Positions 29,135 to 51,161 are shown, counted from the stretch's first letter. The stretch is DNA of 64,000 nt from Bacteroidota bacterium (GCA_026416125.1 JAOAFT010000003.1:82022-146021), one strand, 5' to 3'. Program-made: numbers and translations. Notes: generated by a model not told the origin, from the sequence alone.

Positions 29135-29163
29135 TTGACAAACACAGAAAGTGGTTTTATATT
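29135..29163 (+). promoter_or_regulatory. Consensus-like sigma70 promoter (TTGACA, 17 nt spacer, TATATT) upstream of the pectin locus
   Basis: ttgaca at 29135-29140, a 17-nt spacer, then tatatt at 29158-29163, about 95 nt upstream of the GH28 ATG at 29258. Confidence 0.4.
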
Positions 29164-29257
29164 GCCAAGTGTTTGCGCGCTGGTGTAAAGGCTATAGCAG
29201 AAGTCATGCGCGGTGGCTTCTGGTGTTGTAATGATAACATATGTGTGTGAGGTTGTG

Positions 29258-30655
29258 ATGGGATATATCATTTCTAAGGTCAAGCTACTCTTGCTTTTAC
29301 TTACTATTGTCAGTTGGACAGTAAGTTCACAAGTTGATTGGAGTACAAAAGAGGAAATACTACGACGGATCATCCCACCTACCTTCCCCTCACGTACGTT
29401 TGATGTAACACAGTACGGTGCTGTGGGTAATGGGAAAAAGGATTGTTCAAAAGCGTTTGCGAAAGCAATTGACGCATGTTCAAAAGCAGGTGGAGGAACT
29501 GTGTTAGTACCAGCTGGAAAATATCTAACTGGTCCGATTGTACTTAAAAGTAATGTGAACTTGCACGTTGCGAAAGATGCGGAGATTCTCTTTTTTACCG
29601 ACCCTGATAAGTATTTGCCGGTTGTTTTCAGTCGGTGGGAGGGGGTTGAATGTATGAATTATTCGCCGTTGATTTACGCAATGGAACAGGAGAACATTGC
29701 AATTACGGGAGAAGGGGTATTGAATGGACAGGCGTCGTTCGAAAATTGGTGGTCGTGGAAAGGGCCGTGGAAGTATGTAAAAGAAGTAAAAGGTCCCACC
29801 CAACGAGAAGCACGCGCGAAACTGTTCCAAATGGCTGAAGATGGTGTTCCTGTAGAGAAACGGATATTTGGTAAAGGATCCTATCTTCGACCAAATTTTT
29901 TCATGCCTTACAAGTGCAAAAACGTTCTTGTTGAAGGTGTAACATTTAAAGATTCTCCTATGTGGTTCCTCAACCCGGTTCTATGCACGAATGTTTCGTT
30001 CATCAATGTAAAAACTATTGGATTAGGTCCTAATAACGATGGTATCGATCCTGAGTCATGTAAAGATGTTCTCATTCGAGGATGCTACTTCGATAATGGG
30101 GATGATTGTATTGCAATCAAATCTGGTCGAAATGCCGATGGGCGACGGATCAATGTTCCTTGTGAGAATATTATAGTTGAAAATTGTATAATGAAAAATG
30201 GTCATGGAGGAGTTTCCATCGGTAGTGAACTCTCTGGTGGTGTACGGAATGTGTTCATTGAGAATAACCTCATGGATAGTCCAAATCTTGATCGAGCGCT
30301 CCGGATTAAAACGAATGCGATGCGCGGTGGAGTTGTGGAGAATGTTTTCATGCGAAACTGTAAAGTTGGACAAGTAGCAGAGTCGGCAATAAAAATTGAT
30401 TTCTACTACGAAGAAGGTGAACGCGGTAATTTTACGCCAATTGTACGGAGTGTGTTTATTGATAGTATCGAGTGTCAAAAAGTCCCCTATGCTATCTGGA
30501 TTAAGGCGTTTAAACACTCACCTGCAACAAATGTTCGAATTACTAACTGTACCTTCAATGATGTTGCAAATGCAAATGTTATCGAGAATGTTAAAAATTT
30601 CGATCTAATAAATGTCGTTGTTAATAATCGACATACAAGTGAAAAAAGTAAGTAA
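29258..30655 (+). CDS. Glycoside hydrolase family 28 (polygalacturonase / exo-polygalacturonase) with signal peptide
   Basis: ATG at 29258 begins signal peptide MGYIISKVKLLLLLLTIVSWTVSSQ (ORF track begins at GTG 29213). GH28 motifs NDGIDPESC, GDDCIAIKSG, GHGGVSIGSE, RIK. Confidence 0.85.
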   Translation: MGYIISKVKLLLLLLTIVSWTVSSQVDWSTKEEILRRIIPPTFPSRTFDVTQYGAVGNGKKDCSKAFAKAIDACSKAGGGTVLVPAGKYLTGPIVLKSNVNLHVAKDAEILFFTDPDKYLPVVFSRWEGVECMNYSPLIYAMEQENIAITGEGVLNGQASFENWWSWKGPWKYVKEVKGPTQREARAKLFQMAEDGVPVEKRIFGKGSYLRPNFFMPYKCKNVLVEGVTFKDSPMWFLNPVLCTNVSFINVKTIGLGPNNDGIDPESCKDVLIRGCYFDNGDDCIAIKSGRNADGRRINVPCENIIVENCIMKNGHGGVSIGSELSGGVRNVFIENNLMDSPNLDRALRIKTNAMRGGVVENVFMRNCKVGQVAESAIKIDFYYEEGERGNFTPIVRSVFIDSIECQKVPYAIWIKAFKHSPATNVRITNCTFNDVANANVIENVKNFDLINVVVNNRHTSEKSK

Positions 30656-30689
30656 TTATTAACGTGTTATAAGGAACGAAGGAGTACAA

Positions 30690-33593
30690 ATGGCAAAGCG
30701 AGCATTCATATCTCTAGTGATTGTTTGCGCACTTTTTTGTGTAGCGCACAATGTTCTATTTGCACAAACCGGCGGTAAACTTGCTGGCGTCGTAACTGAT
30801 GAACAAACCGGTGAACCACTTATTGGAGCAAACGTTGTTGTACGTGGTACAAGCCTTGGTGCATCAACAGACCTCGATGGGAACTACTTTGTTCTCAATA
30901 TTCCAGCTGGGAAGTACGAAGTACAGGTATCGATGGTTGGTTACGAACGAGTAATTGTACGTGATGTAATTATCAATTCGGGCCGTACAACAACTCTCAA
31001 TGTCCAGTTGAAACAAACTGCGATTGAACAAGAAGCTGTGGTGGTTGAAGCTGTACGCCCTGACGTTGAGAAAGAAAAAACGTCAACAAGTGCTGTCGTT
31101 CGACCTGAAGAAGTACAGTCCCTTGCAGGGGTACGTGATGTTGCCGATGTAATTGGGTTGGCTGCGGATGTGACAGATGGCCACTTCCGTGGAGGTCGTA
31201 CTAACGAGGAACTCTATGTTCTCCAAGGTATGGGGATTAACAATCCGCTCGATAATTCCTCGGCGTTTATGCCAATTGTGAGCGCCGTAGAGGAAATCGA
31301 AGTTATTACGAGTGGATTTGATGCACAGTACGGTAATGCGCAGTCCGGTGTTGTGAATATTACTATGAAAGAGGGAAAACCAGACAAATGGCGTTCTCGG
31401 TTTGAATCTCGTGTGAAGATGCCCGGGAATAAATACTGGGGACCAAGCCCTTTCGATGTAAAAGCGCAACCATACCTTTTGAAACTTTCTAATTCAAACT
31501 TTTGGCGATATGGGGATTTTAGCAATGGCTATCAGCCATTAATGAACTGGATGAATATGCTTTTCGCTGGGGATACTAATGTGATGGTACATGCAACGCG
31601 AGTTGTGTGGGACAAAATTACTTCACGCGACATTAATAAAGATTATTCAAGAAAACTCGATTATTCATTCGAAGGTGCAACCGGTGGGCCGATTGATAAC
31701 GGCGTAACAATGTTCATTGCATTTCGATCAAACGTTGAAAGCCCAATTTTACCAACTGAAGAACCGGATCAACAACGACAAGTAATGGGGAATATTGCGT
31801 TTGATCTCGGTTCAGGTGCTGCATTCAAAGTAAGTGGTGGTTATCAACAGCAATACGAAAATTATTTTGGTGGTGGAACTGCGTTCTATAATTACGTATG
31901 GGATCGAATTCTTGGTATTCAGTACAGGCTCCGTACAAACCATCAACTAGGTTTCCGATTTACGAAAGCGCTCAGTGCAAAATCGTTCTACGACATTAAA
32001 TTGAATTCATTGAGAACAGAAAACAGGCTTGGGTCCACACCGTGGTACGATGTTATTACAGATGCAGTAAGGAATATGGAGACTGGTACGGCAATTATAA
32101 CACGGACCGGAAACTTGCTCTACTATCAAAATATAACAGGTAAAACATTTTCCTACCTTGGCAATAACTATGGTAATTTCCAGAACGAGCGAACAATCAC
32201 TGTCTCGCTCGATGCATCGTATACCAATCAAATTACAACTTCACATTTACTTAATGCAGGTATCCAAGCGAATTACTACGTTCTTCGTGTTGATAATATT
32301 GGTAGTATTAACTCGAAGGGAAGCATTACACAAACAAAGTATACAGGATATCCGTGGGAAGCAGGAATCTACGTGCAAGATAAGATGGAATTTGAAGGGA
32401 TGATTGCAAAAGTTGGGTTGCGCTGGGATGTATGGAACTCTAACAATTGGTACTACGAAGACATGTTCAATCCATTCAATGTACGAGATGCTCAGGGAAA
32501 TGTGACAGACGTTCAAGACCCAGAACGTGCACCAAAGAAAAAAGCAAAGCCTGTTGGTCGATTGCAACCACGAATAGGTATTTCCTTCCCTGTTTCGATG
32601 ACCACTGTTTTTCACTTGAACTACGGTACCTTCCTGCAACGACCTCCATTCCAGTACATGATCGGAAGCAGGATGAACATGTTATCCACAACTACAACAC
32701 CAAATACGCTTGGGAATCCGCGACTTGAACCACAATCCACGAACTCATACGATGTTGGAGTTATGCAGGGATTGGGAGAAGGATTTACACTTGATGTGAG
32801 CGGCTGGTATAAGGATGTTAAACACCTTGTTGAACAAGTTATCTTCACAGATCAGATTCGTGGTGTTTCCTACAACTCATACTTTAATAGGGATTATGCG
32901 GATATTCGCGGGTTCAGAGTTGTGTTAACGAAACGCCGTGGTGTACTGACAGGTTCATTAAATTATCAATACAGTGTTGCAACTGGGAAGAGTTCGTCAC
33001 CGGTGAATGCACCATGGGGTATTAAACGGGACCTCCAGGGTAACGTATCGACAGATATTTCAAAAGTGCCGCTTCGTGATGTTTTGTTGAACTTCGATCG
33101 TACACACAATCTCATTCTTACTTTAGCGTATGCCACTGGTGAGAAGTGGGGGCCAAAATTCTTCGATGTTTACCCATTCTCGTCAATGGTGTTTTCGGTT
33201 CGTAGTTTTGCCCGCAGTGGACGTCCCTATACACCATCCGGACAGGCGACAGAAATTAACACACGTCGAACGCCGAATGAGTACGAAACAAACATACGCA
33301 TAACAAAAACACTGAAGAAGTTTTTAGGAATGCAAGCATCCATATATGCTGAAATCTTCAATGTCTTCAACAACAAGATTTACGACTACAACTATGTTTT
33401 CAATACAGCAAACAAAACTGATGCCAACCAGATTCTCGTTCACTACGAACGATATCCATTTGAAGATATGACAAATGGAATTTTGTACTACGATAACTAT
33501 GCTGAAGGTACTGGGTTTGCGTGCGATCACTCCTTTGTTTTATATGATAATAGTCCTCGCTCATTTTATGTTGGTATTTCGATAGAGTTTTAA
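30690..33593 (+). CDS. TonB-dependent outer-membrane receptor with N-terminal carboxypeptidase-regulatory-like domain
   Basis: Signal peptide, CarbopepD_reg-like domain (GKLAGVVTDEQTGEPLIGANVVV...GKYEVQVSMVGYE), plug region, long beta-barrel, and C-terminal aromatic residue (SIEF). Confidence 0.8.
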   Translation: MAKRAFISLVIVCALFCVAHNVLFAQTGGKLAGVVTDEQTGEPLIGANVVVRGTSLGASTDLDGNYFVLNIPAGKYEVQVSMVGYERVIVRDVIINSGRTTTLNVQLKQTAIEQEAVVVEAVRPDVEKEKTSTSAVVRPEEVQSLAGVRDVADVIGLAADVTDGHFRGGRTNEELYVLQGMGINNPLDNSSAFMPIVSAVEEIEVITSGFDAQYGNAQSGVVNITMKEGKPDKWRSRFESRVKMPGNKYWGPSPFDVKAQPYLLKLSNSNFWRYGDFSNGYQPLMNWMNMLFAGDTNVMVHATRVVWDKITSRDINKDYSRKLDYSFEGATGGPIDNGVTMFIAFRSNVESPILPTEEPDQQRQVMGNIAFDLGSGAAFKVSGGYQQQYENYFGGGTAFYNYVWDRILGIQYRLRTNHQLGFRFTKALSAKSFYDIKLNSLRTENRLGSTPWYDVITDAVRNMETGTAIITRTGNLLYYQNITGKTFSYLGNNYGNFQNERTITVSLDASYTNQITTSHLLNAGIQANYYVLRVDNIGSINSKGSITQTKYTGYPWEAGIYVQDKMEFEGMIAKVGLRWDVWNSNNWYYEDMFNPFNVRDAQGNVTDVQDPERAPKKKAKPVGRLQPRIGISFPVSMTTVFHLNYGTFLQRPPFQYMIGSRMNMLSTTTTPNTLGNPRLEPQSTNSYDVGVMQGLGEGFTLDVSGWYKDVKHLVEQVIFTDQIRGVSYNSYFNRDYADIRGFRVVLTKRRGVLTGSLNYQYSVATGKSSSPVNAPWGIKRDLQGNVSTDISKVPLRDVLLNFDRTHNLILTLAYATGEKWGPKFFDVYPFSSMVFSVRSFARSGRPYTPSGQATEINTRRTPNEYETNIRITKTLKKFLGMQASIYAEIFNVFNNKIYDYNYVFNTANKTDANQILVHYERYPFEDMTNGILYYDNYAEGTGFACDHSFVLYDNSPRSFYVGISIEF

Positions 33594-33626
33594 TGAAACG
33601 TTAAACCATTATTGTGGGATATAACT

Positions 33627-35993
33627 ATGAAAAGAATTAGTGTTTTATTCTTAAGTGTGCTAACTATAGTAAGCGTTCTCTATGCTCAACGGGATTACCG
33701 TGTTCATAGGCGGTCAATGCTCCATCAAACAATTTACAACACTGGTGAAATTGGCAGAGCTCTTGATGCAAATGCATCAACGACGAACGGTGTTCCAAAG
33801 TTACCAGAAGGAAGTTTCCCAGCAACATTAGCGTCGTGGGAATGGCCGCCGTTTGGGTATCAAATTCTCGATGGAATTGAGTATTGGGGCCATCACAATT
33901 CATTTGGTGCAGGGATTCTCTTTAGTGCAGATATTCCTACTACAACTGGTGTTGTAAATGTACGCCGTGCATGCGGTGCTGTTACCGATGGCGCTGGAAA
34001 TAGTACACAAGTTGCAGGGATTTATGTTGTACCAGGGTCGATTACTCGTACGGAGAATTATCCTGTTCTTGCTGATGGATCGCTCAACCCGAATTACAAT
34101 CCGAATGAGGCAGAAGAAATTATAACAACGACCTATCGCACAACTGATCCGATGAAACTTCAGATTACCCAAACAAGCCGGGCATGGAGTTACCCAGGAT
34201 ATGACTCCTTTATAATTATTGAATACGAAATTGTGAATGTTGATACAGTTGACTATACCAACGGTTTTGTGATGTTTGGTGAAGCGATTGCGCCTTCTGC
34301 GTTTGGAATGCAGCGGAAGTATGCATTGTGGAATGAATCATCAAACACAACACGTGCACAGGAGGTGTACGCTCGTTACAACTTTACTCGATATCTTTCA
34401 TACGTACACACACGGAATGGATTCCCAGATAAAGATTATTTCAACATGTGGTCTACTCCAGGCAATAGGGGTGGCTTGAATGCTCCACAGGCCGTTGGGT
34501 ACATGATTCTACGGTATGATACGAACAACATTCAAACAAAAGACATGTTTACTTATGCTCGAAGCGATAGTGCTGTTGTTTGGGACGAACAGGGAAGATT
34601 CAAGCAACCATGGATTACTCAGCAGATACCGAATAGAAATCAGGATTTAAGTGATTCGCGGCTAGGTGCACTCATGATGATATCAAACCGTCCATTTTCA
34701 GGCTTTGATTTTCGGAGCGGGAGAACTGACTCGACTAACTGGGCAAATTTCTACTACCCCTATGCATCTGTTAATCCGGCGAAGAATTTGGAACTTATGA
34801 AATACTGGCATGGTCGTATACGACCACGAGCAACAGGTACCGGAAATTATTCGCAAACAACATTGCACTATACAACATTTGGCCCCTATGTTTTTAAAAA
34901 GAATGTGCGGATGAAATTTGCTATTGCCCAGTTAGTGGGCTACGGTCCTGGTATCGCAACTGATACAGTTTACCGTGATGCAGGAGGTTTTGCGACTGAA
35001 ACTGGATATTCAACGGGTGGATTCAAACCAGTAGTTAGTTGGTATGATTCCATCTCCTATCCTGGTATTCATGCGACCTTTACTCACATGGGGAGCGCAT
35101 ATTTAAAAACACACCCATTACCATGGTATGTAACAGGGAAAATATCAAATCTTGATCCGGAACCTGTTATCTCCCTACGGCAAGTTGCGGATCGAGCTAT
35201 TCAAATGTATACAGGTCAACCATACAAAAATTACAACGAAGAACAATACAAACCGGAATATGCACCTGCATCAGGTGTTTACAAGTCAGCTTATATTCCG
35301 ATTCCAGCACCAGCTATTGATGTTTACAATGCAGCTGACATGAAAAATAAAATTGTATGGTCACCATCGGTTGAAGATTTTACGTCGCTATCCCAAATCA
35401 GAACAGCTATCGGTGAAGGTAGAGTACGTTCGGGTCTTAAACACTATCTTGTATTGAAAGCAGAAAAACCGTTAGGTCCTTGGAAAGTTCTCGATAGTGT
35501 AAAGGTACGAGACCCTCGATATTTCAATGCTGATATTCAATACCCAGGGTACTACGTTGTACGTGACACATCGAGTTTGTTGAACGAGAATTACTTCTAC
35601 TGTGTTGTGTCTGTTGATTCTACTGGGGGTCGAAGTGGTATGACGAATATTACCTATCACGCAACACAAAAAGGTGCTGTGTCAAAATTGTCGAAAGTGT
35701 ATGTTGCACCAAACCCACTTATACTGACGGCGAATTTTGGTGGATATACTACGCAGGGCGATATTTACGATAAAATTGGATTTTTTGGATTATCACCGAA
35801 GTGTGATATTCGAATCTTTTCCTATAGTGGTCAGTTAATTGCAACCATTCACCATCGGTCAGATACATACTCCACAGAATGGTTCCAAATATCGAGAAGT
35901 GAACAAAGAATTGCCTCGGGTGTTTACTTCTATGTTGTAGAAGATTTGGTCACAGGCGATCGTGTTCATGGTAAGTTTGTCATAATTCATTGA
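33627..35993 (+). CDS. Aromatic-rich hypothetical surface protein (about 790 aa) with T9SS type-A C-terminal sorting domain
   Basis: ATG at 33627 (MKRISVLFLSVLTIVSVLYAQ signal peptide). The C-terminal roughly 90 aa match the Por_Secre_tail pattern (VYVAPNPLIL...DIRIFSYSGQLIATI...GVYFYVVEDLVTGDRVHGKFVIIH). The body is very rich in W, Y and N and has no family I can assign. Confidence 0.6.
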   Translation: MKRISVLFLSVLTIVSVLYAQRDYRVHRRSMLHQTIYNTGEIGRALDANASTTNGVPKLPEGSFPATLASWEWPPFGYQILDGIEYWGHHNSFGAGILFSADIPTTTGVVNVRRACGAVTDGAGNSTQVAGIYVVPGSITRTENYPVLADGSLNPNYNPNEAEEIITTTYRTTDPMKLQITQTSRAWSYPGYDSFIIIEYEIVNVDTVDYTNGFVMFGEAIAPSAFGMQRKYALWNESSNTTRAQEVYARYNFTRYLSYVHTRNGFPDKDYFNMWSTPGNRGGLNAPQAVGYMILRYDTNNIQTKDMFTYARSDSAVVWDEQGRFKQPWITQQIPNRNQDLSDSRLGALMMISNRPFSGFDFRSGRTDSTNWANFYYPYASVNPAKNLELMKYWHGRIRPRATGTGNYSQTTLHYTTFGPYVFKKNVRMKFAIAQLVGYGPGIATDTVYRDAGGFATETGYSTGGFKPVVSWYDSISYPGIHATFTHMGSAYLKTHPLPWYVTGKISNLDPEPVISLRQVADRAIQMYTGQPYKNYNEEQYKPEYAPASGVYKSAYIPIPAPAIDVYNAADMKNKIVWSPSVEDFTSLSQIRTAIGEGRVRSGLKHYLVLKAEKPLGPWKVLDSVKVRDPRYFNADIQYPGYYVVRDTSSLLNENYFYCVVSVDSTGGRSGMTNITYHATQKGAVSKLSKVYVAPNPLILTANFGGYTTQGDIYDKIGFFGLSPKCDIRIFSYSGQLIATIHHRSDTYSTEWFQISRSEQRIASGVYFYVVEDLVTGDRVHGKFVIIH

Positions 35994-36011
35994 TGGAAGG
36001 ATGAAAGAGCA

Positions 36012-37046
36012 ATGAAGAGTAACAAAAAAATATTTTTCAGTGTTTTTGCGCTACTTCTCGTTATTTCGACGATAACAAGTGCGCAAAAAGTTGGTAGCAC
36101 ATCTATGCAATTTCTTAAAGTCATGCCAGTAGCCCGAGCAACAGCTATGGGGGATGCCTATGCTGTTTGGGCAAAAGGTGCTGAAGCAGTATTTTGGAAC
36201 CCTGCTGGCCTTCAATATACAAATGGTAATGAACTCACAATGACTTACGTACAATGGATTTTTGATACATACCAAGGAGCATTTGCATATGCACGATCAT
36301 TAGGTATGTGGGGTTCACTTGGTCTCCAATTGCAATATGTCGACTTTGGTACATTCGATGAAGCTGTGTGGGTTCCACCGTATAACCAAGATCTCAATAC
36401 ACCTGGCTTAACGGGACGTACGTTCCGTCCTTATAGTTATTTAGTTGGTATTAGCTATGCAAATGCTTTGACCGATAAGTTTACAACGGGACTAACAGTA
36501 AAATACGCTCACGAGTCACTCTATAATGATAAAGAAGTTGAAGTGTGGATCTACCACCCTGATACATCAAAGATAAAAGTGAAGACGTGGGCCAATGTGG
36601 TACTCTTCGATTATGGTATTCATTATAAAACTGGCTACCGAACGATTGAAATTGCAGCGTCGATCCAAAATTTTGGCCCTAATGTCAAGTATGGTAAAGA
36701 AGATCACCCTGCACCCCTCTCGTTCCGCATAGGTATTGCAGGCGATCTCATGGGGCCTGACGCATTGTTGTTCAAGAGTGAGAACAGTCGGTTAGGTATG
36801 GAGTTTGACATTTTCCACCCAAATGATTATACACAACAGTACCACATTGGTGCAGAGTATGAGTTTGCTCAACTCATAGCACTTCGTGCTGGATATAAAC
36901 TCAATTACGATGCCGATGGGTTTACTGCTGGACTTGGTATTAAACAAACGCTTGGCACTGTTCGGTTCGCATTCGATTACAGCTTTGGGATGTTAAATTA
37001 CCATCTTGGAAATGTTCACAGAATAAGTTTAGGAGTGGGATTCTAA
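36012..37046 (+). CDS. Outer-membrane beta-barrel protein, FadL/PorV/PorQ/SprF-superfamily-like
   Basis: Signal peptide. N-terminal motif ARATAMGDAYAVWAKGAEAVFWNPAGL (a FadL/PorV-type AxMGGAY...NPAxL signature). Alternating amphipathic strands and a C-terminal aromatic residue (SLGVGF). Confidence 0.55.
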   Translation: MKSNKKIFFSVFALLLVISTITSAQKVGSTSMQFLKVMPVARATAMGDAYAVWAKGAEAVFWNPAGLQYTNGNELTMTYVQWIFDTYQGAFAYARSLGMWGSLGLQLQYVDFGTFDEAVWVPPYNQDLNTPGLTGRTFRPYSYLVGISYANALTDKFTTGLTVKYAHESLYNDKEVEVWIYHPDTSKIKVKTWANVVLFDYGIHYKTGYRTIEIAASIQNFGPNVKYGKEDHPAPLSFRIGIAGDLMGPDALLFKSENSRLGMEFDIFHPNDYTQQYHIGAEYEFAQLIALRAGYKLNYDADGFTAGLGIKQTLGTVRFAFDYSFGMLNYHLGNVHRISLGVGF

Positions 37047-38605: not shown

Positions 38606-38654
38606 TATAATGACATTGTTTGTTAGGAATGTATAACAAGAAGGAAGTGAATCT

Positions 38655-39302: not shown

Positions 39303-39336
39303 ATGCTTTATGTTGTGTGAGGCTGTAAAATGTGAT

Positions 39337-39365
39337 ACGCACCACCCTGTGGTGCGTTTTTTTTG
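39337..39365 (+). terminator. Rho-independent terminator
   Basis: acgcaccac at 39337-39345 and gtggtgcgt at 39349-39357 form a 9-bp stem with a 3-nt loop, followed by a T9 run. Confidence 0.75.
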
Positions 39366-39385
39366 AGCATGGAGGAAAACCATTA

Positions 39386-40930
39386 ATGATAGACAATGGT
39401 AACAAAATTCCATCGATATATCGAATGTTATGTGTAGTGTTTTTCGCAAGTATGTTCTTAGCTAGTGACGTTCAAAAAACAAAGTTTAGAATATTTCTTA
39501 TGGGTGATTCAACAATGGCAGATAAACCACTTGTTGACAACCCAGAGCATGGGTGGGGACAGATGTTTCCCATGTTCTTTACCAGAGATGTTGAAATATT
39601 TAACCATGCACGTAATGGTCGTAGCACAAAGAGTTTCTTGGCTGAAGGTCGTTGGAAAACAATTTACGAGCAATTGCAAAGTGGTGATTATGTAATTATT
39701 CAATTTGGGCACAATGATGCAAAAAAAGATGATTCAACACGGTTCGCCGCTCCACGGCCTGAGTACAAAGAAAATCTTCGCCGATTTATTCGTGAAGCGC
39801 GTGAAAAGAATGCAATTCCAATTCTCCTTACACCAGTTACACGACGAGATTTTAATGAGCATGGTGAATTTGTAGCAACACACTTCGAGTATCCTGATGC
39901 AATGAAGGAAGTTGCTCGAGAAGAGAATGTGTTTCTCATTGATGTTTTTGAACTCTCAAAATCAGTTGTAGGTCCAATGGGGCCTGAAGGCTCGAAGAAG
40001 TTGTACTTAGCTGGTGTCAAAGATGGTATGTATCGTGTGTGGAATAAAAAGAAAGATAATACCCATTTCTCGCGTTTAGGTGCTTTTATAATAGCAAAGC
40101 TTGTTGCGGAAGGTATTCGTGAATTGAAACTTCCACTTGCAACCGAGCTTGTTGATCTACCACAAAGCTCTCTGCTATTGCCAGCCTACGGTAAAGTTGT
40201 TGCTCTCGATTATTATTTCAATAATGAGTGGCGTACTTCGAAGGGAAAAGATTCTGTTGAACGTTTTCACTATACTTGGGAAGACACAACGAACAGCGGG
40301 TTTTCACAACTCGGGAGAGTGCTCGACTGGCTAGGCGCAGATCTCGATACTATCCAATCACCTCCAACAATATCAACGCTCCAACATTGCAGTATTTACA
40401 TCATTGTTGACCCAGATACTCCAAAAGAAACAACAAGTCCACATTACATTACAGAAGAAGATGTTACTGTACTTAAACAATGGGTTGAAAATGGAGGTGT
40501 GTTATTATTGATGGCAAACGATAAAGGGAATTGTGAATTTAACCACTTTAACAAACTTGCAGAACAGTTTGGTATTCGTTTTACAGAAGACAATCACTTT
40601 ATGGTTAAAAATAACGTCTATGAAATGGGCAGAATAGAGGAATTCCCAGACCATCCTGCTTTTAATGGGGTGAAGCATATTTTTATGAAGGAAGTAACTT
40701 CAATTACGACAACTCCACCTGCACAGCCACTCCTTACTGCTCGTGGAGTTACGATTATGGCGTACGCTCGCGTTGGAAAAGGTTTAGTTGTAGCTGTCGG
40801 TGATCCATGGTTATATAATGAATACTTTGATAACAGACGTTTACCTAAGGGATATGAAAATTGGGATGCGGGGAAACAATTCTTTACATGGCTACTGAGT
40901 CAATCACGGCAGATATACTTTGAGAATTAG
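39386..40930 (+). CDS. SGNH/GDSL hydrolase (CE12 rhamnogalacturonan acetylesterase-like) fused to a C-terminal roughly 280-aa GATase1-like/DUF4350-like domain
   Basis: GGAGGA at 39371-39376 and ATG at 39386 (the ORF-track start at 39332 lies inside the terminator). SGNH block I FLMGDSTMAD, the GHND block and a DAKKDD region. The C-terminal half (GGVLLLMANDKGN..., VAVGDPW) is unrelated to the esterase domain. Confidence 0.65.
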   Translation: MIDNGNKIPSIYRMLCVVFFASMFLASDVQKTKFRIFLMGDSTMADKPLVDNPEHGWGQMFPMFFTRDVEIFNHARNGRSTKSFLAEGRWKTIYEQLQSGDYVIIQFGHNDAKKDDSTRFAAPRPEYKENLRRFIREAREKNAIPILLTPVTRRDFNEHGEFVATHFEYPDAMKEVAREENVFLIDVFELSKSVVGPMGPEGSKKLYLAGVKDGMYRVWNKKKDNTHFSRLGAFIIAKLVAEGIRELKLPLATELVDLPQSSLLLPAYGKVVALDYYFNNEWRTSKGKDSVERFHYTWEDTTNSGFSQLGRVLDWLGADLDTIQSPPTISTLQHCSIYIIVDPDTPKETTSPHYITEEDVTVLKQWVENGGVLLLMANDKGNCEFNHFNKLAEQFGIRFTEDNHFMVKNNVYEMGRIEEFPDHPAFNGVKHIFMKEVTSITTTPPAQPLLTARGVTIMAYARVGKGLVVAVGDPWLYNEYFDNRRLPKGYENWDAGKQFFTWLLSQSRQIYFEN

Positions 40931-40972
40931 TACAGTTCGAATTTTAGATTGTTAATGATGAGGATGCATAAA

Positions 40973-42625
40973 ATGAAACAAAAGGTTGTTGATGGATTTT
41001 TTATTGTTGCGTTGTTGAGTTCAATGGCTTTTTCACAGCTTCACAGAATATACGAACCAATTCCACATCGATACTATGAGGGTGTTCACTTTGCTATGCC
41101 ACAAGTTCCGCTCCCAACAATTCCAAATGTAAGTGTGTCAATAGTTGAATTTGGTGCGAAAGGAGATGGAGTAACACTTAACACGAAAGCTTTTGCCGAT
41201 GCTATTGCTGCATGTGAACAAAAAGGGGGGGGGAGAATTGTAGTGCCACCAGGTATTTGGGTTACAGGACCTATTGTTCTCAAAAGTAACATTGAGTTGC
41301 ATGTTGTACGTGGTGCAATTGTGTTGTTTTCCTCCAACATTGATGATTACCCAATGATCCAACGTCCGAAGAGTACAGCGTTTACAAGATCACCTCTTCT
41401 GTATGCTGTTGGCGCGCACAATATTGCAATTACAGGAGAAGGGATGTTTAATGGAAATGGCCAGTACTGGCGCCCTGTCAAAAAGGAAAAACTTCCAAGT
41501 GGTCATTGGAAACGCCTTATTGAGTCTGGCGGAGCTGTTACGTCGGATGGAAAATTATGGTACCCATCGAAGGAAGCACTGGAGGGTGAGAAGTATTTGG
41601 ATGAGCTTCGTAAATCAAAGAAAAGACTTGATTCCACTGATTATGCTGCAACGCGGGAATTCTTGCGCCCCGATTTGTTAGCGTTTGTTAATTGTTCAAC
41701 CATCCTTATTGATGGTCCATCTTTTGTTAACTCGCCGAAATTTACTGTCCATCCAATTCAATGCGTGGATGTGGTCATTCGTAATATTGAAATTTTCAAT
41801 GAGTGGTGGTTCCAAAATGCAGATGGTATTGATTTGTCATCTTGCAGAAACGTTGTTGTCTACAATAATGTTATTAATACAGGTGATGATGGAATTTGTG
41901 TAAAACCTGGTACACCAAACCCAAAGTTGAAAGATTTACCTGCGTGTGAAAATTATATTATCGCTGATAATATTGTGTATCACGCACATGGTGGTTTTGT
42001 GATTGGAAGTGAATCGTATGGAGGAGCAAGAAATATAAGTGTAAAAAACCTTACCTGCGTATGGACGGATGTAGGGCTTCGGTTTAAGTCGGCTCGTGAC
42101 CGTGGAGGTCTTGTTGAACATATTGTGATCGATAGTGTATGGATGAAAGATATTGCAGGCGAGGCGATCCTTTTTGATATGTCCTACGGAGATGCGCCTA
42201 CGGATGTTCCACAAGAACGAATTAGAATCCCTCAATTCAGAAATTTCACGATTCGAAATGTTGTTTGTGATGGAGCACGATACGGTGTGAGAATTGAAGG
42301 GTTACGTGAACAACCGATTCACACTATTTCAATTGAAAATGCTACTTTACTTTCTGATCGATCTGTCCTTATGAATTATGCTGAAGGAATACAATTGAAT
42401 CGAGTTGCTCTACGTTCGAAATATGAGCCATACTGTACGATTAAGAATAGTCAACAAATTGTTTTCGATAATGTTAATCTTCTAGATTCCGTAAGCATTT
42501 TCTTACGTGTTGAAGGTAGTACAACAAAAAACATTAGAGTACACAAATCAGTGCTTGAGCGTAGTCAAAAACCATTTGAGACATCGAATGGTGCAAGTGA
42601 AAGCTCAGTAGTATTCATACACTGA
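40973..42625 (+). CDS. Glycoside hydrolase family 28 (polygalacturonase/rhamnogalacturonase-like)
   Basis: AGGA RBS and ATG at 40973 (MKQKVVDGFFIVALLSSMAFSQ). GH28 motifs NADGIDLSSC, GDDGICVKPG, HGGFVIGSE, RFK. Contains a G9 homopolymer at 41225-41233. Confidence 0.8.
   Translation: MKQKVVDGFFIVALLSSMAFSQLHRIYEPIPHRYYEGVHFAMPQVPLPTIPNVSVSIVEFGAKGDGVTLNTKAFADAIAACEQKGGGRIVVPPGIWVTGPIVLKSNIELHVVRGAIVLFSSNIDDYPMIQRPKSTAFTRSPLLYAVGAHNIAITGEGMFNGNGQYWRPVKKEKLPSGHWKRLIESGGAVTSDGKLWYPSKEALEGEKYLDELRKSKKRLDSTDYAATREFLRPDLLAFVNCSTILIDGPSFVNSPKFTVHPIQCVDVVIRNIEIFNEWWFQNADGIDLSSCRNVVVYNNVINTGDDGICVKPGTPNPKLKDLPACENYIIADNIVYHAHGGFVIGSESYGGARNISVKNLTCVWTDVGLRFKSARDRGGLVEHIVIDSVWMKDIAGEAILFDMSYGDAPTDVPQERIRIPQFRNFTIRNVVCDGARYGVRIEGLREQPIHTISIENATLLSDRSVLMNYAEGIQLNRVALRSKYEPYCTIKNSQQIVFDNVNLLDSVSIFLRVEGSTTKNIRVHKSVLERSQKPFETSNGASESSVVFIH
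41225..41233 (+). repeat. Homopolymeric G9 tract inside the GH28 coding sequence
   Basis: Read directly: caaaagggggggggagaatt, encoding KGGGR. Confidence 0.9.
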
Positions 42626-42690
42626 GGAACCAGGAGTAGCACTCGAAGAAAATATTCATACTTGGGGTGGAGAAAGGAAAAAGATTTTTG

Positions 42691-43986
42691 ATGGTTGGTA
42701 GAAGTATTTTATTCTCGTTAGTTTTTATAAGTATTGGTGTTTTGAATAGTTTTGATATATTCGCGCAAAGACGCTTCGAGTACATTGTTGCAAAGGATGG
42801 GAGTGGTCAATTTCGCTCGATTCAGGAGGCGATTGATGCAGTTCCATTTAATCGACAGGAGCGAGCCGTTATTATTGTAAAGAAAGGTGTTTACGAAGAA
42901 AAACTTTTTATAGCTAAGAGTAACATTGCTATTGTTGGAGAAGATCGCGATAGTACGCGTATTGTGTATCCACAGCTTCGTAGTACATGGCGTGCTGTAA
43001 ATAACGATAATGACTATGGAAGTGCAGTTGTAAACATTGATTCCTCTGCAGTCGATATTACGATTGCTAACTTGACGATTTATAATAATTATGGTTCGCT
43101 CACAGGGATCCATGATCATCAATTTGCAATTTATGGTACAGGAACTCGTATTATTCTTCTTAACTGCAATGTCGTTGCAGATGGTGGCGATACCGTAAGT
43201 TTGTGGAACCGGACGAATGGAATGTACTATCATGCGAACTGTTACTTCGAAGGTTGGGTTGATTATGTATGTCCTCGTGGGTGGTGCTATATTACAGATT
43301 CTCGGTTCTATGGCCATAATCTAAGTGCTTCAATTTGGCACGATGGTAGTGCTAATAAAAAACAAAAATTTGTTATTCGATACTCATACTTCGATGGTGT
43401 ACCAGGATTTCCCCTTGGACGAAACCATCGCGATGGACAAATCTATCTCCTTGATTGTATTTTTTCAAGAAACATGGCTGATATACCGATTTACTACCCA
43501 CCGACAACAACTAGTGGGCCATGGAAGTGGGGAGCGCGGCATTACTATTACAATTGCCATCGTGAAGGTGGAGACTACGATTGGTTTGCTGATAATTTAC
43601 ATACCGCCGAAGGTGCACCAAAACCAGATGAAGTCACTGCACATTGGACATTCGATTACCTGTGGGATCCTGAAGCATCGCTTCCTGCAATTCTCCCATT
43701 TGTGTCAATGCCAGTGCCCCGCAATGGCGCCTATATAGCATATCAGTCTCGTCTTTCATTGCGATGGCTACCATCTCGAACAGCACAAGCATTTCGTCTA
43801 TTTTTTGGGAAAGTGAAGAAGTATACATTCATGAAAGATCCACAATTGAGTATGATTGCAGAAGTAAAAGAAGCCCAGTTTGAAATATCTTCTCTTGAAC
43901 CAGCAACAACGTACTTTTGGCAAGTCGAAGAAATAACACCATATGGAATTCTCCGTGGACCTGTGTGGCACTTCACAGTACGGTAA
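42691..43986 (+). CDS. Pectinesterase (CE8 pectin methylesterase) with C-terminal FN3/Ig-like domain
   Basis: CE8-type motifs (GVYEEKL, DHQFAIYGTG in the QAVAL position, GGDTVSLWN in the QDTL position, GWVDYVCPRG in the DFIFG position, LGRNHRDGQ in the LGRPW position). ATG at 42691 is preferred over GTG 42667. Confidence 0.75.
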   Translation: MVGRSILFSLVFISIGVLNSFDIFAQRRFEYIVAKDGSGQFRSIQEAIDAVPFNRQERAVIIVKKGVYEEKLFIAKSNIAIVGEDRDSTRIVYPQLRSTWRAVNNDNDYGSAVVNIDSSAVDITIANLTIYNNYGSLTGIHDHQFAIYGTGTRIILLNCNVVADGGDTVSLWNRTNGMYYHANCYFEGWVDYVCPRGWCYITDSRFYGHNLSASIWHDGSANKKQKFVIRYSYFDGVPGFPLGRNHRDGQIYLLDCIFSRNMADIPIYYPPTTTSGPWKWGARHYYYNCHREGGDYDWFADNLHTAEGAPKPDEVTAHWTFDYLWDPEASLPAILPFVSMPVPRNGAYIAYQSRLSLRWLPSRTAQAFRLFFGKVKKYTFMKDPQLSMIAEVKEAQFEISSLEPATTYFWQVEEITPYGILRGPVWHFTVR

Positions 43987-44039
43987 GTAACCTCCATGTA
44001 TATTCTTTTTGCGTGTGTAATAATTGATGGGAGTAATCT

Positions 44040-45665
44040 ATGAAATGGGAAATTGTTATTAGTATTTTTTTGATTTTGGGTTCATCTATCATACAGGCAC
44101 AGCAACTTGCCTTTCCTTCTGCCGAAGGCGCTGGGCGTTTTGCTACTGGTGGACGTGGTGGTGCTGTGTACGAAGTAACGAATCTGAATAATAGTGGACC
44201 TGGTTCGATTGTCGATGCTGTAAGTCAACCAAATCGTACGATTGTTTTTCGTGTCTCTGGTACAATTGAGTTGGGAAATGTGATTTTAAAACCAAAATCG
44301 AATATAACGATTGCGGGACAAACCGCACCAGGGGATGGGATTTGTATTAAAGGGCGTATCCAAATTGATGCATCGAATGTTATTATTCGATACATACGTG
44401 TTCGTGTAGATGCTGGTGCTGCAAATTCATCGGGCGATGCAATTGATATCTCAAGTGGTTCGAACATTATAATTGATCACGTCAGTGCATCGTATGCCCG
44501 CGATGAAGGAATCTCTTGCCAAGAGAGAACAAACAATGTGACAGTTCAGTGGTGTATGATTACCGAGGCACTAACGTTCGAAAGTCATAGCTACGGTTCG
44601 TTGATTCGCGGTGATTATGGTGATTTGAAGACGTACCACCACAATCTCTATGCACACAACAACAATCGACTCCCACGTCCGGGTAACTATACCAATTACC
44701 CTACCGACACACTTGGTCTGTTTTTCGATTTCAGGAATAATGTAGTGTACAATTGGAAAGGTTCATATCCTGGCTACAATGCTGATACTGGTTCCATTAG
44801 CAACTACAATTTTGTAGGAAATGTGTATGTTCCTGGACTTGAGTCGAGTATTACAGGGATTATTTTTAAAGAGGATGCATATCGGTCAACAGGGTATTTC
44901 GCTGACAACATGTACAACGGCTCAATACCACCCAATCAGTGGTCGATGGTTCAATTCGGAAGCAAGTTTACTGCTGAGAGAATTCAGGCATATAAAGCAC
45001 GTTCTCGAGAAATTCTAATGCCTCCTGTTCGTACGACGAGCCCTCAGATTGCATACCAGGAAGTACTTGCTTCTGCTGGTGCAAGCTTTCCAAAGCGGGA
45101 TCCAATTGATACCCGAATTGTATACGATGTACAAAATAAAACAGGTCGTTCAATCGCTACGACTGCAGAACAACCAGAAGGTGGATGGCCAGTGTTACAG
45201 AGTCTTCCAGCTCCGCAAGACGATGATCACGACGGAATGCCAAATGAGTGGGAACGTGCATTTGGGCTTAATCCGAATGATCCAAGTGATCGTAATGTAT
45301 ATTCACCAGCAGGGTACACAATGCTTGAAGAGTACCTCAATAGTCTCGTTGGTGAAAGCACTATCACCGATGTCGCGTTCACTCAAACTCCAAATATACC
45401 GCTGGAAGTACGTCTGTTCCAGAATTTTCCCAATCCATTCAATCCCGTAACGGTAATTCAATTTCAACTTCAAATGGCCTCCGTTGTCTCGGTAAAGGTC
45501 TATTCAGTCCAAGGTAAAGAAATACAAACACTTACTCATGGGGTATATCCCACGGGGTTGCATTCAGTTGTGTTCGATGGATCCAATCTACCTAGCGGTG
45601 TTTATGTATATCGGTTGCACACTGCTACCCAAACACTTTCGAAAACAATGGTTTTATTGAAGTAA
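44040..45665 (+). CDS. Pectate lyase (PL1-like) with T9SS type-A C-terminal sorting domain
   Basis: Signal peptide. Pectate-lyase N-terminal block AFPSAEGAGRFATGGRGGAVYEVTNL...ITIAGQTAPGDGICIKG...IIRYIRVR. The C-terminus NFPNPFNPVTVIQF...GVYVYRL...VLLK matches the Por_Secre_tail. Confidence 0.75.
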   Translation: MKWEIVISIFLILGSSIIQAQQLAFPSAEGAGRFATGGRGGAVYEVTNLNNSGPGSIVDAVSQPNRTIVFRVSGTIELGNVILKPKSNITIAGQTAPGDGICIKGRIQIDASNVIIRYIRVRVDAGAANSSGDAIDISSGSNIIIDHVSASYARDEGISCQERTNNVTVQWCMITEALTFESHSYGSLIRGDYGDLKTYHHNLYAHNNNRLPRPGNYTNYPTDTLGLFFDFRNNVVYNWKGSYPGYNADTGSISNYNFVGNVYVPGLESSITGIIFKEDAYRSTGYFADNMYNGSIPPNQWSMVQFGSKFTAERIQAYKARSREILMPPVRTTSPQIAYQEVLASAGASFPKRDPIDTRIVYDVQNKTGRSIATTAEQPEGGWPVLQSLPAPQDDDHDGMPNEWERAFGLNPNDPSDRNVYSPAGYTMLEEYLNSLVGESTITDVAFTQTPNIPLEVRLFQNFPNPFNPVTVIQFQLQMASVVSVKVYSVQGKEIQTLTHGVYPTGLHSVVFDGSNLPSGVYVYRLHTATQTLSKTMVLLK

Positions 45666-45675
45666 GGAGTTAAAT

Positions 45676-48078
45676 ATGAAATGCACGATTCGCTTTGCTA
45701 TGTTTGTGATTATAACTTCATCGGTTGTGAGTGGACAAAATTTTTCAGTAACGTGGCCGCTATCATCGAACAATCTTCCTGTTGTACAAGGATACGCAAC
45801 TGGTGATAGTGTTGTGCGTCGGAACTTAGTTGTACGGAGTTATACGACAACAGCAACGTATGGTGTATATCAGAAAAATGGACCAGATGCAGCGGGAAAT
45901 TGGGTTGCAGAAACTGCAGAAAATCCAAATCGGTACCTTGCTTTTCCTGTAGCACCGCAGGAAGGGTATTCATTGACAGTCTCGACAATTTCATTTCGGA
46001 TGGGATGGTCTGGAACAACAAACAATATGAAAGCAAATATCTACTACGCAATTGATTCGAGCAATAATTTCAGTTCAAAGACATTAGTAGAATCAAACAT
46101 TGTTCTGGCAAATAGTGATGGTACACTGTACACATACACACTGAATAAGACTATTCAATCAGGTGGTCGCTTTTACCTTCTCATCTATCCATGGTGCACG
46201 ATTACTACGACAGCAAAATCAGTTGGTTTGCAGAATGTGACTATTGTTGGTACCGCAACAGCTAGTGGTGCAGGAACAATTCTTGTTTCACAACACACGG
46301 TTTCATTTGGTTCAATGAATGTAGGTAAGCAACGAATAAAATCAGTTTCCGTAAGTGGCTTAAACTTGCAACCGCCTTCTGGTACAATTACAGCGGCGGT
46401 GAGTGGCGAGTTCGATTTAGCATTGTCATGGGGGGGGCCATTTTACTCAACTGTAGAAATTCCCTATACAAATGGTGCACTCCAACCAACAACGCTATTA
46501 ATTCGTTTTGCTCCATCGAGTATAGGAGTAAAGAGCAATACTATTACATTGAATGGTGGAAGCGCAGGTGAAGTTCGAATTTCACTCAGTGGTACTGCAG
46601 TTCCTGCTGATAGTGTTCTTGGAATTTTCGTAGCTACCACAGGGAACGACTCGTGGATAGGATCATACAATTATCCGTTTGCATCGATTTCAAAAGCGGT
46701 CTCTGTTGCACAACCAGGAGATACAATATATATCCGTGGAGGTACGTACCCCATGACGTCTACAGTAGTACTTTCAAAGAACGGTACAGCAGAAAATCGC
46801 TATTCGCTTGTACAGTATCCAGGGGATGAAATGCGCCCGGTGTTGGATTTTTCGACAATGTCTTCAGGATATGGAATTCAGCTTTCTGGTTCGTATTGGT
46901 ACATCCGCGGTATTGACATCAAAGGGGCAGCGAGTAATGGTATGAGAATTACTGGACATTATAATATAGTGGAATTTTGTTCTTTCTATGAAAACAGGGA
47001 ATCGGGACTCCAGATCAGTACTGGTGGTTCTTATAACAGAATAATCAATTGCGACTCATATTACAACGTTGATGCTACTCAGGAAAATGCAGATGGTTTT
47101 GCACCGAAACTCGATGTTGGTACTGGAAATTATTTTTATGGTTGTCGTGCGTGGCAAAACTCAGATGATGGCTGGGATGGCTATTTACGTCCTGCCGACG
47201 GTGTTGTTACAACGATTGAAAATTGTTGGAGCTTTCGAAATGGTTACTTAAAAAATGGTACATTGAGCTCAGGCAATGGGAATGGATTTAAACTTGGTGG
47301 AGGTGATAATTCAAACGCAGATAGTTTGAGACATATTATGCACGTTCGGCATTGTCTCGCATTTGACAACAAAGCTAAAGGATTCGACCAAAACAACAAC
47401 AGAGGATCTATGACGTTATATAATTGCTCCGCATACCGAAATGGTGGATATAACTATAGTTTACCAGGTCCTTTGAAGTATGGTGAAACAATAACTATTA
47501 AAAATTCACTTGTGCTAGGGAATTACGGCAAAATTTGGGCTTCAGCAATCCAACAGAAAAATAGTTGGTTAGCTCCATTCACTGGTGCAACAATTTCAGA
47601 TTTTGTTAGTGTCGATACCATTGGGATGCGTGGACCACGTAAACCAGATGGGAGTTTGCCAGAACTACCCTTTATGCGGTTAGTACCAACAAGTCAATTT
47701 GTTGATGCTGGTGTTGAAGTAGGACTACCATATGTCGGGCTAGCACCTGACATAGGATGTTTTGAGTATGGACTTATAAACAATGTTTATTCAACACCAG
47801 CGAATATTCCTACACAACTTATTCTTGAACAAAATTTTCCCAATCCATTCAACCCTGTAACAACAATACGATTTGCTGTCGAGCAACCAGGGTTGACTAC
47901 GCTTCGGGTGTACGATCTCTTAGGACGTGAAGTTGCAATACTCGTGAATGAACCCATCAATGCTGGGGTATACTATTCTATTACTTTTGATGCGTCTCAA
48001 CTTTCATCGGGAATCTACTTCTATAGGCTAGAGAATAATGGGAAATCGATTGTTCGAAAATGTGCAGTAGTAAAGTAA
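45676..48078 (+). CDS. Right-handed beta-helix (pectin-lyase-fold) protein, probable polysaccharide lyase (PL9-like), with a roughly 300-aa N-terminal unknown domain and T9SS type-A CTD
   Basis: Beta-helix block with ADGFAPKLDVGTGNYFYGCRAWQNSDDGWDGY and GNGNGFKLGGGD motifs. C-terminus NFPNPFNPVTTIRF...GIYFYRL...VVK is a T9SS CTD. Contains a G8 homopolymer at 46430-46437. Confidence 0.6.
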   Translation: MKCTIRFAMFVIITSSVVSGQNFSVTWPLSSNNLPVVQGYATGDSVVRRNLVVRSYTTTATYGVYQKNGPDAAGNWVAETAENPNRYLAFPVAPQEGYSLTVSTISFRMGWSGTTNNMKANIYYAIDSSNNFSSKTLVESNIVLANSDGTLYTYTLNKTIQSGGRFYLLIYPWCTITTTAKSVGLQNVTIVGTATASGAGTILVSQHTVSFGSMNVGKQRIKSVSVSGLNLQPPSGTITAAVSGEFDLALSWGGPFYSTVEIPYTNGALQPTTLLIRFAPSSIGVKSNTITLNGGSAGEVRISLSGTAVPADSVLGIFVATTGNDSWIGSYNYPFASISKAVSVAQPGDTIYIRGGTYPMTSTVVLSKNGTAENRYSLVQYPGDEMRPVLDFSTMSSGYGIQLSGSYWYIRGIDIKGAASNGMRITGHYNIVEFCSFYENRESGLQISTGGSYNRIINCDSYYNVDATQENADGFAPKLDVGTGNYFYGCRAWQNSDDGWDGYLRPADGVVTTIENCWSFRNGYLKNGTLSSGNGNGFKLGGGDNSNADSLRHIMHVRHCLAFDNKAKGFDQNNNRGSMTLYNCSAYRNGGYNYSLPGPLKYGETITIKNSLVLGNYGKIWASAIQQKNSWLAPFTGATISDFVSVDTIGMRGPRKPDGSLPELPFMRLVPTSQFVDAGVEVGLPYVGLAPDIGCFEYGLINNVYSTPANIPTQLILEQNFPNPFNPVTTIRFAVEQPGLTTLRVYDLLGREVAILVNEPINAGVYYSITFDASQLSSGIYFYRLENNGKSIVRKCAVVK
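46430..46437 (+). repeat. Homopolymeric G8 tract inside the beta-helix lyase coding sequence
   Basis: Read directly: tcatggggggggcca, encoding SWGGP. Confidence 0.9.
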
Positions 48079-50931: not shown

Positions 50932-51161
50932 CGTTTGTTTTTTGCTTCATTCAATCATAAGAAAGATTCGATTGAAAATCTATACTATGCTTTACGAAAA
51001 TATGCAGATTAATACATCTGTTTGAGTGAAAAATATCGCTCTTTGTATAGTACTCCTAACATTGCATTCGCTTCCTTTATGTGTTATATTTCACTATAAA
51101 AGTGGTAAGTATTACATCTCAGCTGAATTTGGAACTAATAATTCACAAAAACACTCACTTC

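Follow-up and report, generated by a model that had tools for sequence, protein, structure and literature searches.

We analyzed a 64,000-nucleotide stretch of DNA, hereafter the window (GCA_026416125.1 JAOAFT010000003.1:82022-146021), from an uncultured Bacteroidota metagenome-assembled genome (MAG) that probably belongs to the class Ignavibacteria. Eleven genes on the + strand are packed at 29213-48078 with intergenic gaps of -1 to 83 bp, and all genes of the co-directional block described in an initial annotation of this DNA were found in place. Besides pectin-degrading enzymes, the array encodes a TonB-dependent transporter (TBDT), a 788-amino acid secreted protein (X788) with a C-terminal domain (CTD) related to type IX secretion system (T9SS) CTDs, and two outer-membrane-type β-barrels. 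These four genes form a module that recurs in other genomes. The genes of the array, in order, are as follows (SPI, signal peptidase I; NTE, N-terminal extension).

29213..30655, + strand: GH28 polygalacturonase/galacturonidase (PF00295, 7e-32; likely start ATG 29258)
30690..33593, + strand: TBDT, 967 aa, with N-terminal carboxypeptidase-regulatory-like (NTE) domain, TonB-box-like VVVEAVRP, plug, and large barrel
33627..35993, + strand: X788, 788 aa, secreted non-lipoprotein, from SPI signal peptide to PorZ-like CTD ending in GKFVIIH
36012..37046, + strand: PorV/PorQ-family 14-strand-type barrel, 344 aa (NF033709, 207.4 bits, cutoff 90)
37046..38605, + strand: FadL/BamG-like barrel, 519 aa; start overlaps the stop of the PorV/PorQ-family gene (ATGA)
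38655..39302, + strand: small putative β-barrel, 215 aa, ending in F (OMP_b-brl, E 0.005, under cutoff)
39386..40930, + strand: GDSL/SGNH (CE12-type) pectin acetylesterase with C-terminal DUF4350 (PF13472, 5e-17; PF14258, 6e-6; PaeY model, 2e-25)
40949..42625, + strand: second GH28 (PF00295, 9e-27) with SPI signal peptide, without CTD
42667..43986, + strand: CE8 pectin methylesterase (PF01095, 6e-18) with SPI signal peptide, without CTD
44040..45665, + strand: PL1 pectate lyase with type A T9SS CTD (PF00544, 25.9 bits, cutoff 24; PelZ model, 2e-28)
45676..48078, + strand: PL9 pectate lyase with type A T9SS CTD (PF22842, 2e-24; PelN model, 3e-55)

Proteins of the four-gene core

Pfam matches of the 967-aa protein are confined to its N-terminal carboxypeptidase-regulatory-like domain. 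A profile built from 36 orthologues matched the barrels of BtuB and PhuR and the plug of YncD/FepA in the PDB; many homologues carry PF00593 and are named TonB-dependent receptor by NCBI. A 22-strand-type barrel with an N-terminal plug is present, confirming the TBDT fold. Between this plug and the NTE is a conserved VVVxATRP stretch, modeled with low confidence. The NTE is 38% identical to that of SusCdex. Against the SusC/RagA model TIGR04056 the protein scores 64.5 bits (cutoff 368), and it is structurally closer to classical TBDTs than to SusC. It is a classical-type TBDT with a SusC-like NTE, outside the SusC/RagA family. The lack of SusD beside this transporter, which had been singled out as unusual, is real but not in itself anomalous, since the transporter is not of the SusC family.

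X788 consists of an SPI signal peptide, an invariant segment (amino acids 21-44), a β-supersandwich core, a clade-variable region (amino acids ~360-520), an FN3-like domain, and the PorZ-like CTD, and it contains no cysteine. About 700 of its residues belong to no Pfam family, in any of 35 relatives. Searches of the PDB returned no sequence relatives (phmmer) and no whole-protein structural relative, Foldseek giving only FN3 tandems and PorZ. The predicted model is mostly β, with too few helices for an (α/α)6 catalytic domain. Its core fold is common to domains of GH94, GH149, GH116, GH15, and GH65 enzymes, GH174 fucanases, and a PL26 lyase; the part of X788 matching these glycan enzymes is a non-catalytic β-sandwich. 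No catalytic domain was found fused to X788 in ten relatives, which had Ig-like domains only. One X-family variant (P0129, 1262 aa) has ~540 additional N-terminal residues of ASH/HYDIN-type Ig domains.

The SusD models of Pfam and NCBIfam matched no gene at 21918-58017 and none of the 35 relatives of X788, which upholds the earlier call that SusD is absent. We also considered X788 as a disguised SusD and rejected this identity; the relatives gave no SusD hidden Markov model (HMM) match, the model is β-rich, and there is no lipobox.

The CTD of X788 in the window is sub-threshold both for CHU_C (17 bits) and for the PorZ C-terminus (29 bits). Among the 35 relatives, 34 match the PorZ C-terminus, 26 match TIGR04183 (best 1.9e-12), and 22 match CHU_C. 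The C-terminal β-sandwich of the X788 model resembles that of PorZ, and the NCBI entry (MCX7983811.1) is annotated as a T9SS C-terminal target domain protein. The T9SS CTD previously ascribed to this protein (given then as 790 aa) therefore holds at the level of the family, but not for the window copy by curated cutoffs.

The 344-aa barrel belongs to the PorV/PorQ family, whose profile matched PorV (6h3i_F) in the PDB at 7e-18. It falls short of both equivalog models for PorV and PorQ proper (NF033710, 74.8 versus 250 bits; NF033711, 90.4 versus 220 bits). Its gene begins 18 bp after that of X788, and by analogy with known pairs we propose it as a cognate anchor or shuttle for the X788 CTD.

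The 519-aa barrel matched the BamG equivalog NF053685 at 7e-15, with a score (54.9 bits) far under the cutoff of 250, and so lies outside that equivalog. The profile of its family matched 9hiv_F (5.9e-10), TbuX (1.7e-4), and FadL (6e-4) in the PDB. Chain 9hiv_F is deposited just as "Outer membrane protein" and is taken here as BamG, because the 519-aa protein separately matches the NCBIfam BamG model. The 519-aa and 344-aa families are distant full-length homologues (hhalign 95%, E 2.4e-8). Family HMM, profile matches, and this homology bear out the two paralogous FadL/PorV-like barrels of the initial annotation. Relative to its paralogue, the 519-aa barrel has an insertion of ~150 aa (amino acids ~85-235), presumably an extracellular element with a function of its own. 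Strongly conserved motifs (IPDP, VQRPFD-IGPNWSRS, and YYQNNNVLSP) occur in this insertion.

The small barrel first labeled OmpA-like is present as a gene, but that label comes from a single sub-threshold match and the gene lies outside the conserved unit; tblastn found no counterpart in 86 loci. Taken as a whole, the HMM and fold check that the initial annotation had proposed gave no SusD, a CTD at the family level, and barrels of the PorV/FadL type.

Recurrence of the core and its glycan contexts

Scanning one genome per species yielded 214 X relatives, from which 80 loci were kept, all in MAGs. Their labels are mostly Ignavibacteria, Ignavibacteriales, Ignavibacteriaceae, KSB1, Calditrichia, or "Bacteroidota bacterium". 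In the protein collection there are >500 full-length relatives of X788, annotated, if at all, as Ignavibacteria, KSB1, or unclassified Bacteroidota MAGs. Four protein profiles were run against six-frame translations of the loci, with tblastn as a second view; adjacency limits were loosened because stop-to-stop open reading frames (ORFs) overlap.

The TBDT gene is directly upstream of X in 62 of 66 testable loci, a PorV/Q-like barrel gene is directly downstream of X in 63 of 65, and a FadL-like barrel gene comes next after it in 56 of 59. The four-gene core occurs in unchanged order in ~60 independent loci, a recurrence that is more than chance. The two barrel genes usually overlap or touch, with a median gap of ~2 bp from the PorV/Q stop to the FadL-like start, and the identities of the four proteins to those of the window co-vary across 53 loci (r 0.70-0.94). 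Several genomes have two copies of the module. Gene neighborhoods thus agree with the unit of TBDT, CTD protein, and barrel that had been suggested, which is very strongly conserved across Ignavibacteria, KSB1, and Calditrichia. Real exceptions are a pseudogenized copy (L020) and an orphan (L075). In L020 (722-3070) the X gene is broken by an internal stop and the downstream barrels are absent; in L075 (9941-12217) the X gene stands alone, and neither TBDT nor barrels occur in the ~8-10 kb that flank it on either side.

Loci in which X is 42-65% identical to that of the window are flanked by GH28, PL1, PL9, CE8, and CE12 genes. A second clade, at 35-41% identity, has flanks with alginate lyase, SDR, MFS, and GntR genes. 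When 97 ORFs flanking X in 17 loci of ≤41% X identity were scanned with Pfam, the matches were to alginate lyase (9), heparinase II/III-like (8), SDR (8), MFS (7), and GntR/FCD (7), and also to PL6-type chondroitinase B. Judged by these domains, the flanks of the 35-41% clade are those of a standard alginate locus. A few loci with X identity ≤41% carry pectin genes instead and are the source of GH28 and GH88 matches (four each).

An X profile search of the full library gave ~25 full-length clusters at 50% identity and 980 clusters at E <1e-10. We inspected five of the weaker matches. In three of these cases the distant X gene has a CarboxypepD_reg-TBDT on one side and a PorV-like barrel on the other, both from the families of the module. 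One of the three triads (L094) shares its locus with genes for a GntR regulator, an ABC sugar transporter, a GH38 α-mannosidase, and two CTD proteins. The fourth (P0199) is on a short contig, where a truncated ORF directly upstream matches the TBDT profile (1.2e-40) and no downstream gene is reached before the contig stops. The fifth (P0139; 1033 aa; L092, 10001-13102) is an orphan, with neither TBDT nor barrels as neighbors.

These outlying loci have some further features. In L094 (12902-21805), the triad is followed by the ABC sugar importer, the GH38 enzyme of 1156 aa, and two DUF4961 proteins with T9SS CTDs, which may be further T9SS-delivered surface components of mannoside-type loci. P0139 adjoins [FeFe]-hydrogenase-type genes and has a GH28-CTD gene ~5 kb off. 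In a KSB1 MAG (L001/L002, 491-6635), a second unit directly upstream of the pectin module comprises a TBDT of 996 aa (Pfam Plug and barrel), a 552-aa CTD protein, and a PL1-like gene; it has no PorV-like barrel, and a response-regulator gene stands ahead of it.

Distant X homologues have constant N-terminal (~7-290) and C-terminal (~540-778) parts and a middle that differs. Similarly, amino acids 361-460 and 501-520 of X788 are conserved within the pectin and the alginate clade and different between them, and the N-terminal segment 21-40 and amino acids 141-200 are common to both. At the sequence level, this is the pattern that would be expected of a constant docking scaffold with a variable ligand site. 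The analysis establishes which genes are present, which folds they encode, that the module is conserved, and that it is associated with loci for pectin, alginate, and mannosides.

Pectin enzymes, signal peptides, and transcription

As in a polysaccharide utilization locus (PUL), carbohydrate-active enzymes (CAZymes) for a single glycan are co-located in the array: two GH28 enzymes, a CE8, a CE12-type esterase, a PL1, and a PL9. By their domain matches they fit homogalacturonan utilization. The complete depolymerization of homogalacturonan and rhamnogalacturonan that had been read into the array is too strong a claim. HMM scans of the array found no GH105/GH88, PL4/PL11, or rhamnosidase, nothing specific to the rhamnogalacturonan backbone, and no uronate catabolism genes (cytoplasmic uronate pathway). 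For the first GH28, the nearest NCBIfam model is the BT4155 α-D-galacturonidase (360 bits, under its cutoff); because it has an SPI-type signal peptide and no CTD, this enzyme is probably periplasmic. The esterase probably starts at ATG 39386 and not where its ORF opens at 39332, since a signal peptide results from the former start. The PL9 lyase has an Ig-like N-terminal region (choice-of-anchor D type).

CTDs on two of the enzymes were recovered as originally described, both above the TIGR04183 cutoff of 23 bits and the PF18962 cutoff of 27 bits (PL1, 36.0 and 32.4 bits; PL9, 41.4 and 38.8 bits). Every secreted protein of the array has a plain signal peptide. A lipobox is lacking throughout, an absence that fits T9SS delivery in place of lipidation.

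A glutamine stands right after A, S, or G at the predicted signal-peptidase I site in nine of the 10 secreted proteins with an unambiguous N-terminus (29258-48078; the first GH28 is not counted). The sites are LFAQT, LYAQR, TSAQK, VYSQE, TYSQG, AFSQL, IFAQR, IQAQQ, and VSGQN, and consensus sequences of orthologues show the glutamine as well. This is the "Bacteroidetes Q-rule", which is reported not to be valid for the entire FCB (Fibrobacteres–Chlorobi–Bacteroidetes) group (PMC5837995).

Two sequence elements bear on transcription of the array.

29135..29163, + strand: sigma-70-like promoter match (TTGACA-17-TATATT, 11/12), best in the region; a consensus match only, which may not be the promoter type of the lineage
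39337..39365, + strand: intrinsic-terminator-like hairpin (9-bp stem, 6 GC pairs, then T8)

The promoter-like match sits in a 197-bp gap 5' of the first gene, the sole sizeable gap upstream. The strong hairpin (ACGCACCAC-CCT-GTGGTGCGT, then T8) is inside the apparent operon, between the small barrel gene and the esterase gene, where it overlaps the first codons of the esterase ORF as mechanically called (opening at 39332). The array may therefore be two transcription units split at the hairpin. Scans of the window with Rfam and for tRNA detected no RNA element. Upstream of the array are housekeeping genes (dcw cluster, ftsA, ftsZ, enolase, a phosphoglucomutase-family gene, and rlmD), and the downstream block contains a convergent α-glucan phosphorylase, a GH2 gene, and smc. 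The convergent phosphorylase (TIGR02094, 883 bits) and GH2 enzyme, at 48358-53741 directly 3' of the pectin array, are carbohydrate genes outside the conserved module and have no obvious pectin link.

A candidate importer with a putatively T9SS-exported partner

Like SusC/SusD (RagAB) systems, the locus has a TBDT with an NTE, a surface-protein gene right after it, CAZymes for one glycan, and paralogous copies per glycan. Unlike them, its transporter fails the SusC/RagA model, and its partner X788 appears as an all-β T9SS substrate, whereas SusD is an α-helical lipoprotein; the unit also has two FadL-superfamily barrels, and lipoproteins are absent from the locus. In its working the window locus resembles a PUL, yet it does not belong to the SusC/SusD type: each of the two defining genes fails its test, and none of the surface components is a lipoprotein. 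With proteobacterial CUT (carbohydrate utilization containing TBDT) loci it shares a TBDT together with pectin or alginate enzymes and the absence of SusD. Those loci lack T9SS, CTD proteins, and PorV-like barrels, and the window locus is not one of them because it depends on T9SS-type parts.

Non-SusC TBDTs with surface capture partners are known. In Bacteroides, BtuB-BtuG and XusA-XusB are such transporters with surface-exposed lipoprotein lids, and the transporters of BtuG and XusB are among the structural neighbors of the window TBDT. Their partners differ from X788 in being lipoproteins, they have no extra barrels, and their ligands are cofactors and siderophores, not glycans.

The pairing of X788 with a barrel resembles PorZ-PorQ, PorU-PorV, and type B CTD-PorP/SprF, the CTD being PorZ-like and the gene standing beside one for a PorV/PorQ-family barrel. 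The CTD of PorZ is retained for PorQ binding, PorU remains attached to PorV, and cargo with a type B CTD relies on neighboring PorP/SprF barrels; a review has proposed that cognate PorV-like barrels shield CTDs from cleavage (PMC10202324). Cargo and barrel genes are adjacent in SprB/SprF-type pairs (PMC10202324), as they are here (18 bp in the window; 63/65 loci). In contrast to these T9SS pairs, the window barrel is neither PorV nor PorQ by equivalog, and X788 has no β-propellers, peptidase, or adhesin repeats. The genes of the window pair accompany those of a nutrient transporter and a second barrel, instead of genes of the secretion machinery or of gliding. For the 519-aa barrel the nearest solved relative is 9hiv_F, taken as BamG, which is an anchor rather than a channel; BamG is a FadL-fold barrel and anchors the surface protein BamH (PMC12611786, PMC12578637). 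Unlike BamG, the 519-aa barrel is far under the family cutoff, has the ~150-aa insertion, and is encoded several times per genome within glycan loci rather than beside BAM genes.

The genome of Melioribacter roseus has SusCDE and Por-domain enzymes, and the four-gene unit is not described for it (PMC3534657). Ignavibacteria are therefore not SusD-free. In open-access full texts we found no description of the module as a glycan importer, and it may have been described elsewhere. Each component comes from a known superfamily (TBDT, T9SS CTD cargo, PorV/PorQ, or FadL/BamG), and their fixed combination is apparently undescribed.

By analogy with these systems, we lean modestly toward a reading in which X788 is exported by T9SS and held on its cognate barrel or barrels beside the TBDT, as a non-lipidated analogue of SusD or of a surface glycan-binding protein. 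The PL1 and PL9 lyases, with the type A CTDs seen here, would be exported by T9SS, and pectate would be cut outside the cell. X788 would be a T9SS substrate too, with a PorZ-like CTD that is not removed. It would stay bound to the PorV/PorQ-family barrel of the adjacent gene, as PorZ does on PorQ, PorU on PorV, and type B cargo on PorP/SprF. The FadL/BamG-like barrel would be a second scaffold, as BamG is for BamH, and may bind the invariant N-terminal segment of X788. Placed beside or over the TBDT, X788 would use its supersandwich and variable middle to capture oligouronides released by these lyases and pass them to the transporter, much as SusD, surface glycan-binding proteins, BtuG, or XusB do, but without lipidation. 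The two GH28 enzymes, CE8, and CE12, which have plain signal peptides, would complete the breakdown in the periplasm.

Several points weigh against this reading. The mechanism as a whole is put together from gene order and predicted folds, and the CTD of the window X788 reaches none of the curated HMM cutoffs. Shared phylogeny accounts for part of the co-variation of identities, which need not mean physical contact, and orphan X copies occur without a TBDT (L075 and P0139). The N-terminal 80 residues of X788 have low model confidence, which makes the role given to them a guess. The hairpin at 39337-39365 may uncouple the transporter unit from five of the six enzyme genes. Finally, 114 residues of X788 are ≥95% conserved in both the pectin and the alginate clade, with the identical residue in each; such constraint exceeds that of most glycan-binding proteins and could point to catalysis or another role.

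Alternatively, the two FadL-superfamily barrels could be private PorV-type shuttles only, for X788 and perhaps the lyases, with X788 then processed and either attached to lipopolysaccharide or released, instead of staying on the barrels. We regard this as unlikely, even though PorV is a known shuttle of type A CTD cargo and PorP/SprF is needed to secrete neighboring cargo (PMC10202324). That the 344-aa protein is in the PorV/PorQ family and that 26 of 35 X788 relatives match the type A CTD model also agree with a shuttle. However, a shuttle-only role leaves unexplained both the strict linkage to a TBDT in ~60 loci and the second barrel with its large conserved insertion, and it does not say why the CTD-bearing lyases of the same loci need no private barrel. 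Moreover, the CTD of X788 matches that of PorZ, which is retained, more consistently than generic cargo (34/35 versus 26/35).

Improbable in our judgment is that X788 is a new surface glycan enzyme (a lyase, hydrolase, or esterase), so that the module couples cleavage to import. X788 is rich in invariant residues (Arg, Glu, Asp, Tyr, Trp, and His), which would suit an enzyme, as would the core fold shared with GH94, GH149, GH116, GH15, GH65, GH174, and PL26 domains; but the matched part is the non-catalytic β-sandwich, and helices are too few for the (α/α)6 domain. The invariant residues do not differ between pectin and alginate loci, and the mannoside locus has the constant regions too, whereas each of these substrates calls for a different chemistry. 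Among the 35+10 relatives, Pfam and NCBIfam gave no match to a CAZyme or another catalytic family. The least probable explanation is an ordinary CAZyme cluster centered on a TBDT, comparable to CUT loci in Xanthomonas and further proteobacteria, in which the CTD protein and barrels are merely co-located and have an unrelated envelope role (adhesion, outer-membrane biogenesis, or hydrophobic uptake): TBDTs with CAZymes and without SusD are already known outside Bacteroidia, FadL-family proteins classically import hydrophobic molecules, and orphan X copies exist, but fixed order, near-zero spacing, stop/start overlap, and co-divergence, seen in three named lineages of phylum rank and in no fewer than three glycan contexts, point to one functional unit with the TBDT.

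Each of these alternatives explains the strict linkage of the four genes in different glycan contexts less well than does a surface-held X788 that serves the transporter. A broader form of that model, which we offer tentatively and with somewhat less confidence than the role of X788 itself, is that the four-component importer is a widespread alternative to SusCD in FCB lineages outside Bacteroidia (Ignavibacteria, KSB1, and Calditrichia). Its lid would be T9SS-secreted and non-lipidated. A retained PorZ-like CTD and an invariant N-terminal segment would dock it on a private pair of FadL-superfamily barrels, adjacent to a classical-type TBDT, and a swappable middle would set specificity (pectin, alginate, mannoside, and others). 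The initial annotation had interpreted the locus as a glycan-capture system whose surface components are delivered and anchored by T9SS instead of by lipidation. That interpretation receives partial support, the architecture and its generality being well supported and extending beyond what was proposed there.

To our knowledge, glycan capture at the Bacteroidota surface is explained almost wholly by SusC/SusD and lipoproteins. PUL prediction tools rely on the SusC/SusD pair, and loci built on the four-gene module are therefore invisible to them. The X family lacks annotation, and the finding bears on the detection of PULs outside Bacteroidia. The four profiles provide a marker set for finding such loci, and the domain map of X788, with its constant ends and variable middle, is directly testable. 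Ignavibacteria, KSB1, and Calditrichia are abundant in sediments, soils, and groundwater. If the model is true, carbon turnover by these lineages would proceed partly through an unrecognized type of importer, T9SS would gain a role in building nutrient transporters, and the PorV/FadL superfamily would gain a further case of a barrel serving as an anchor.

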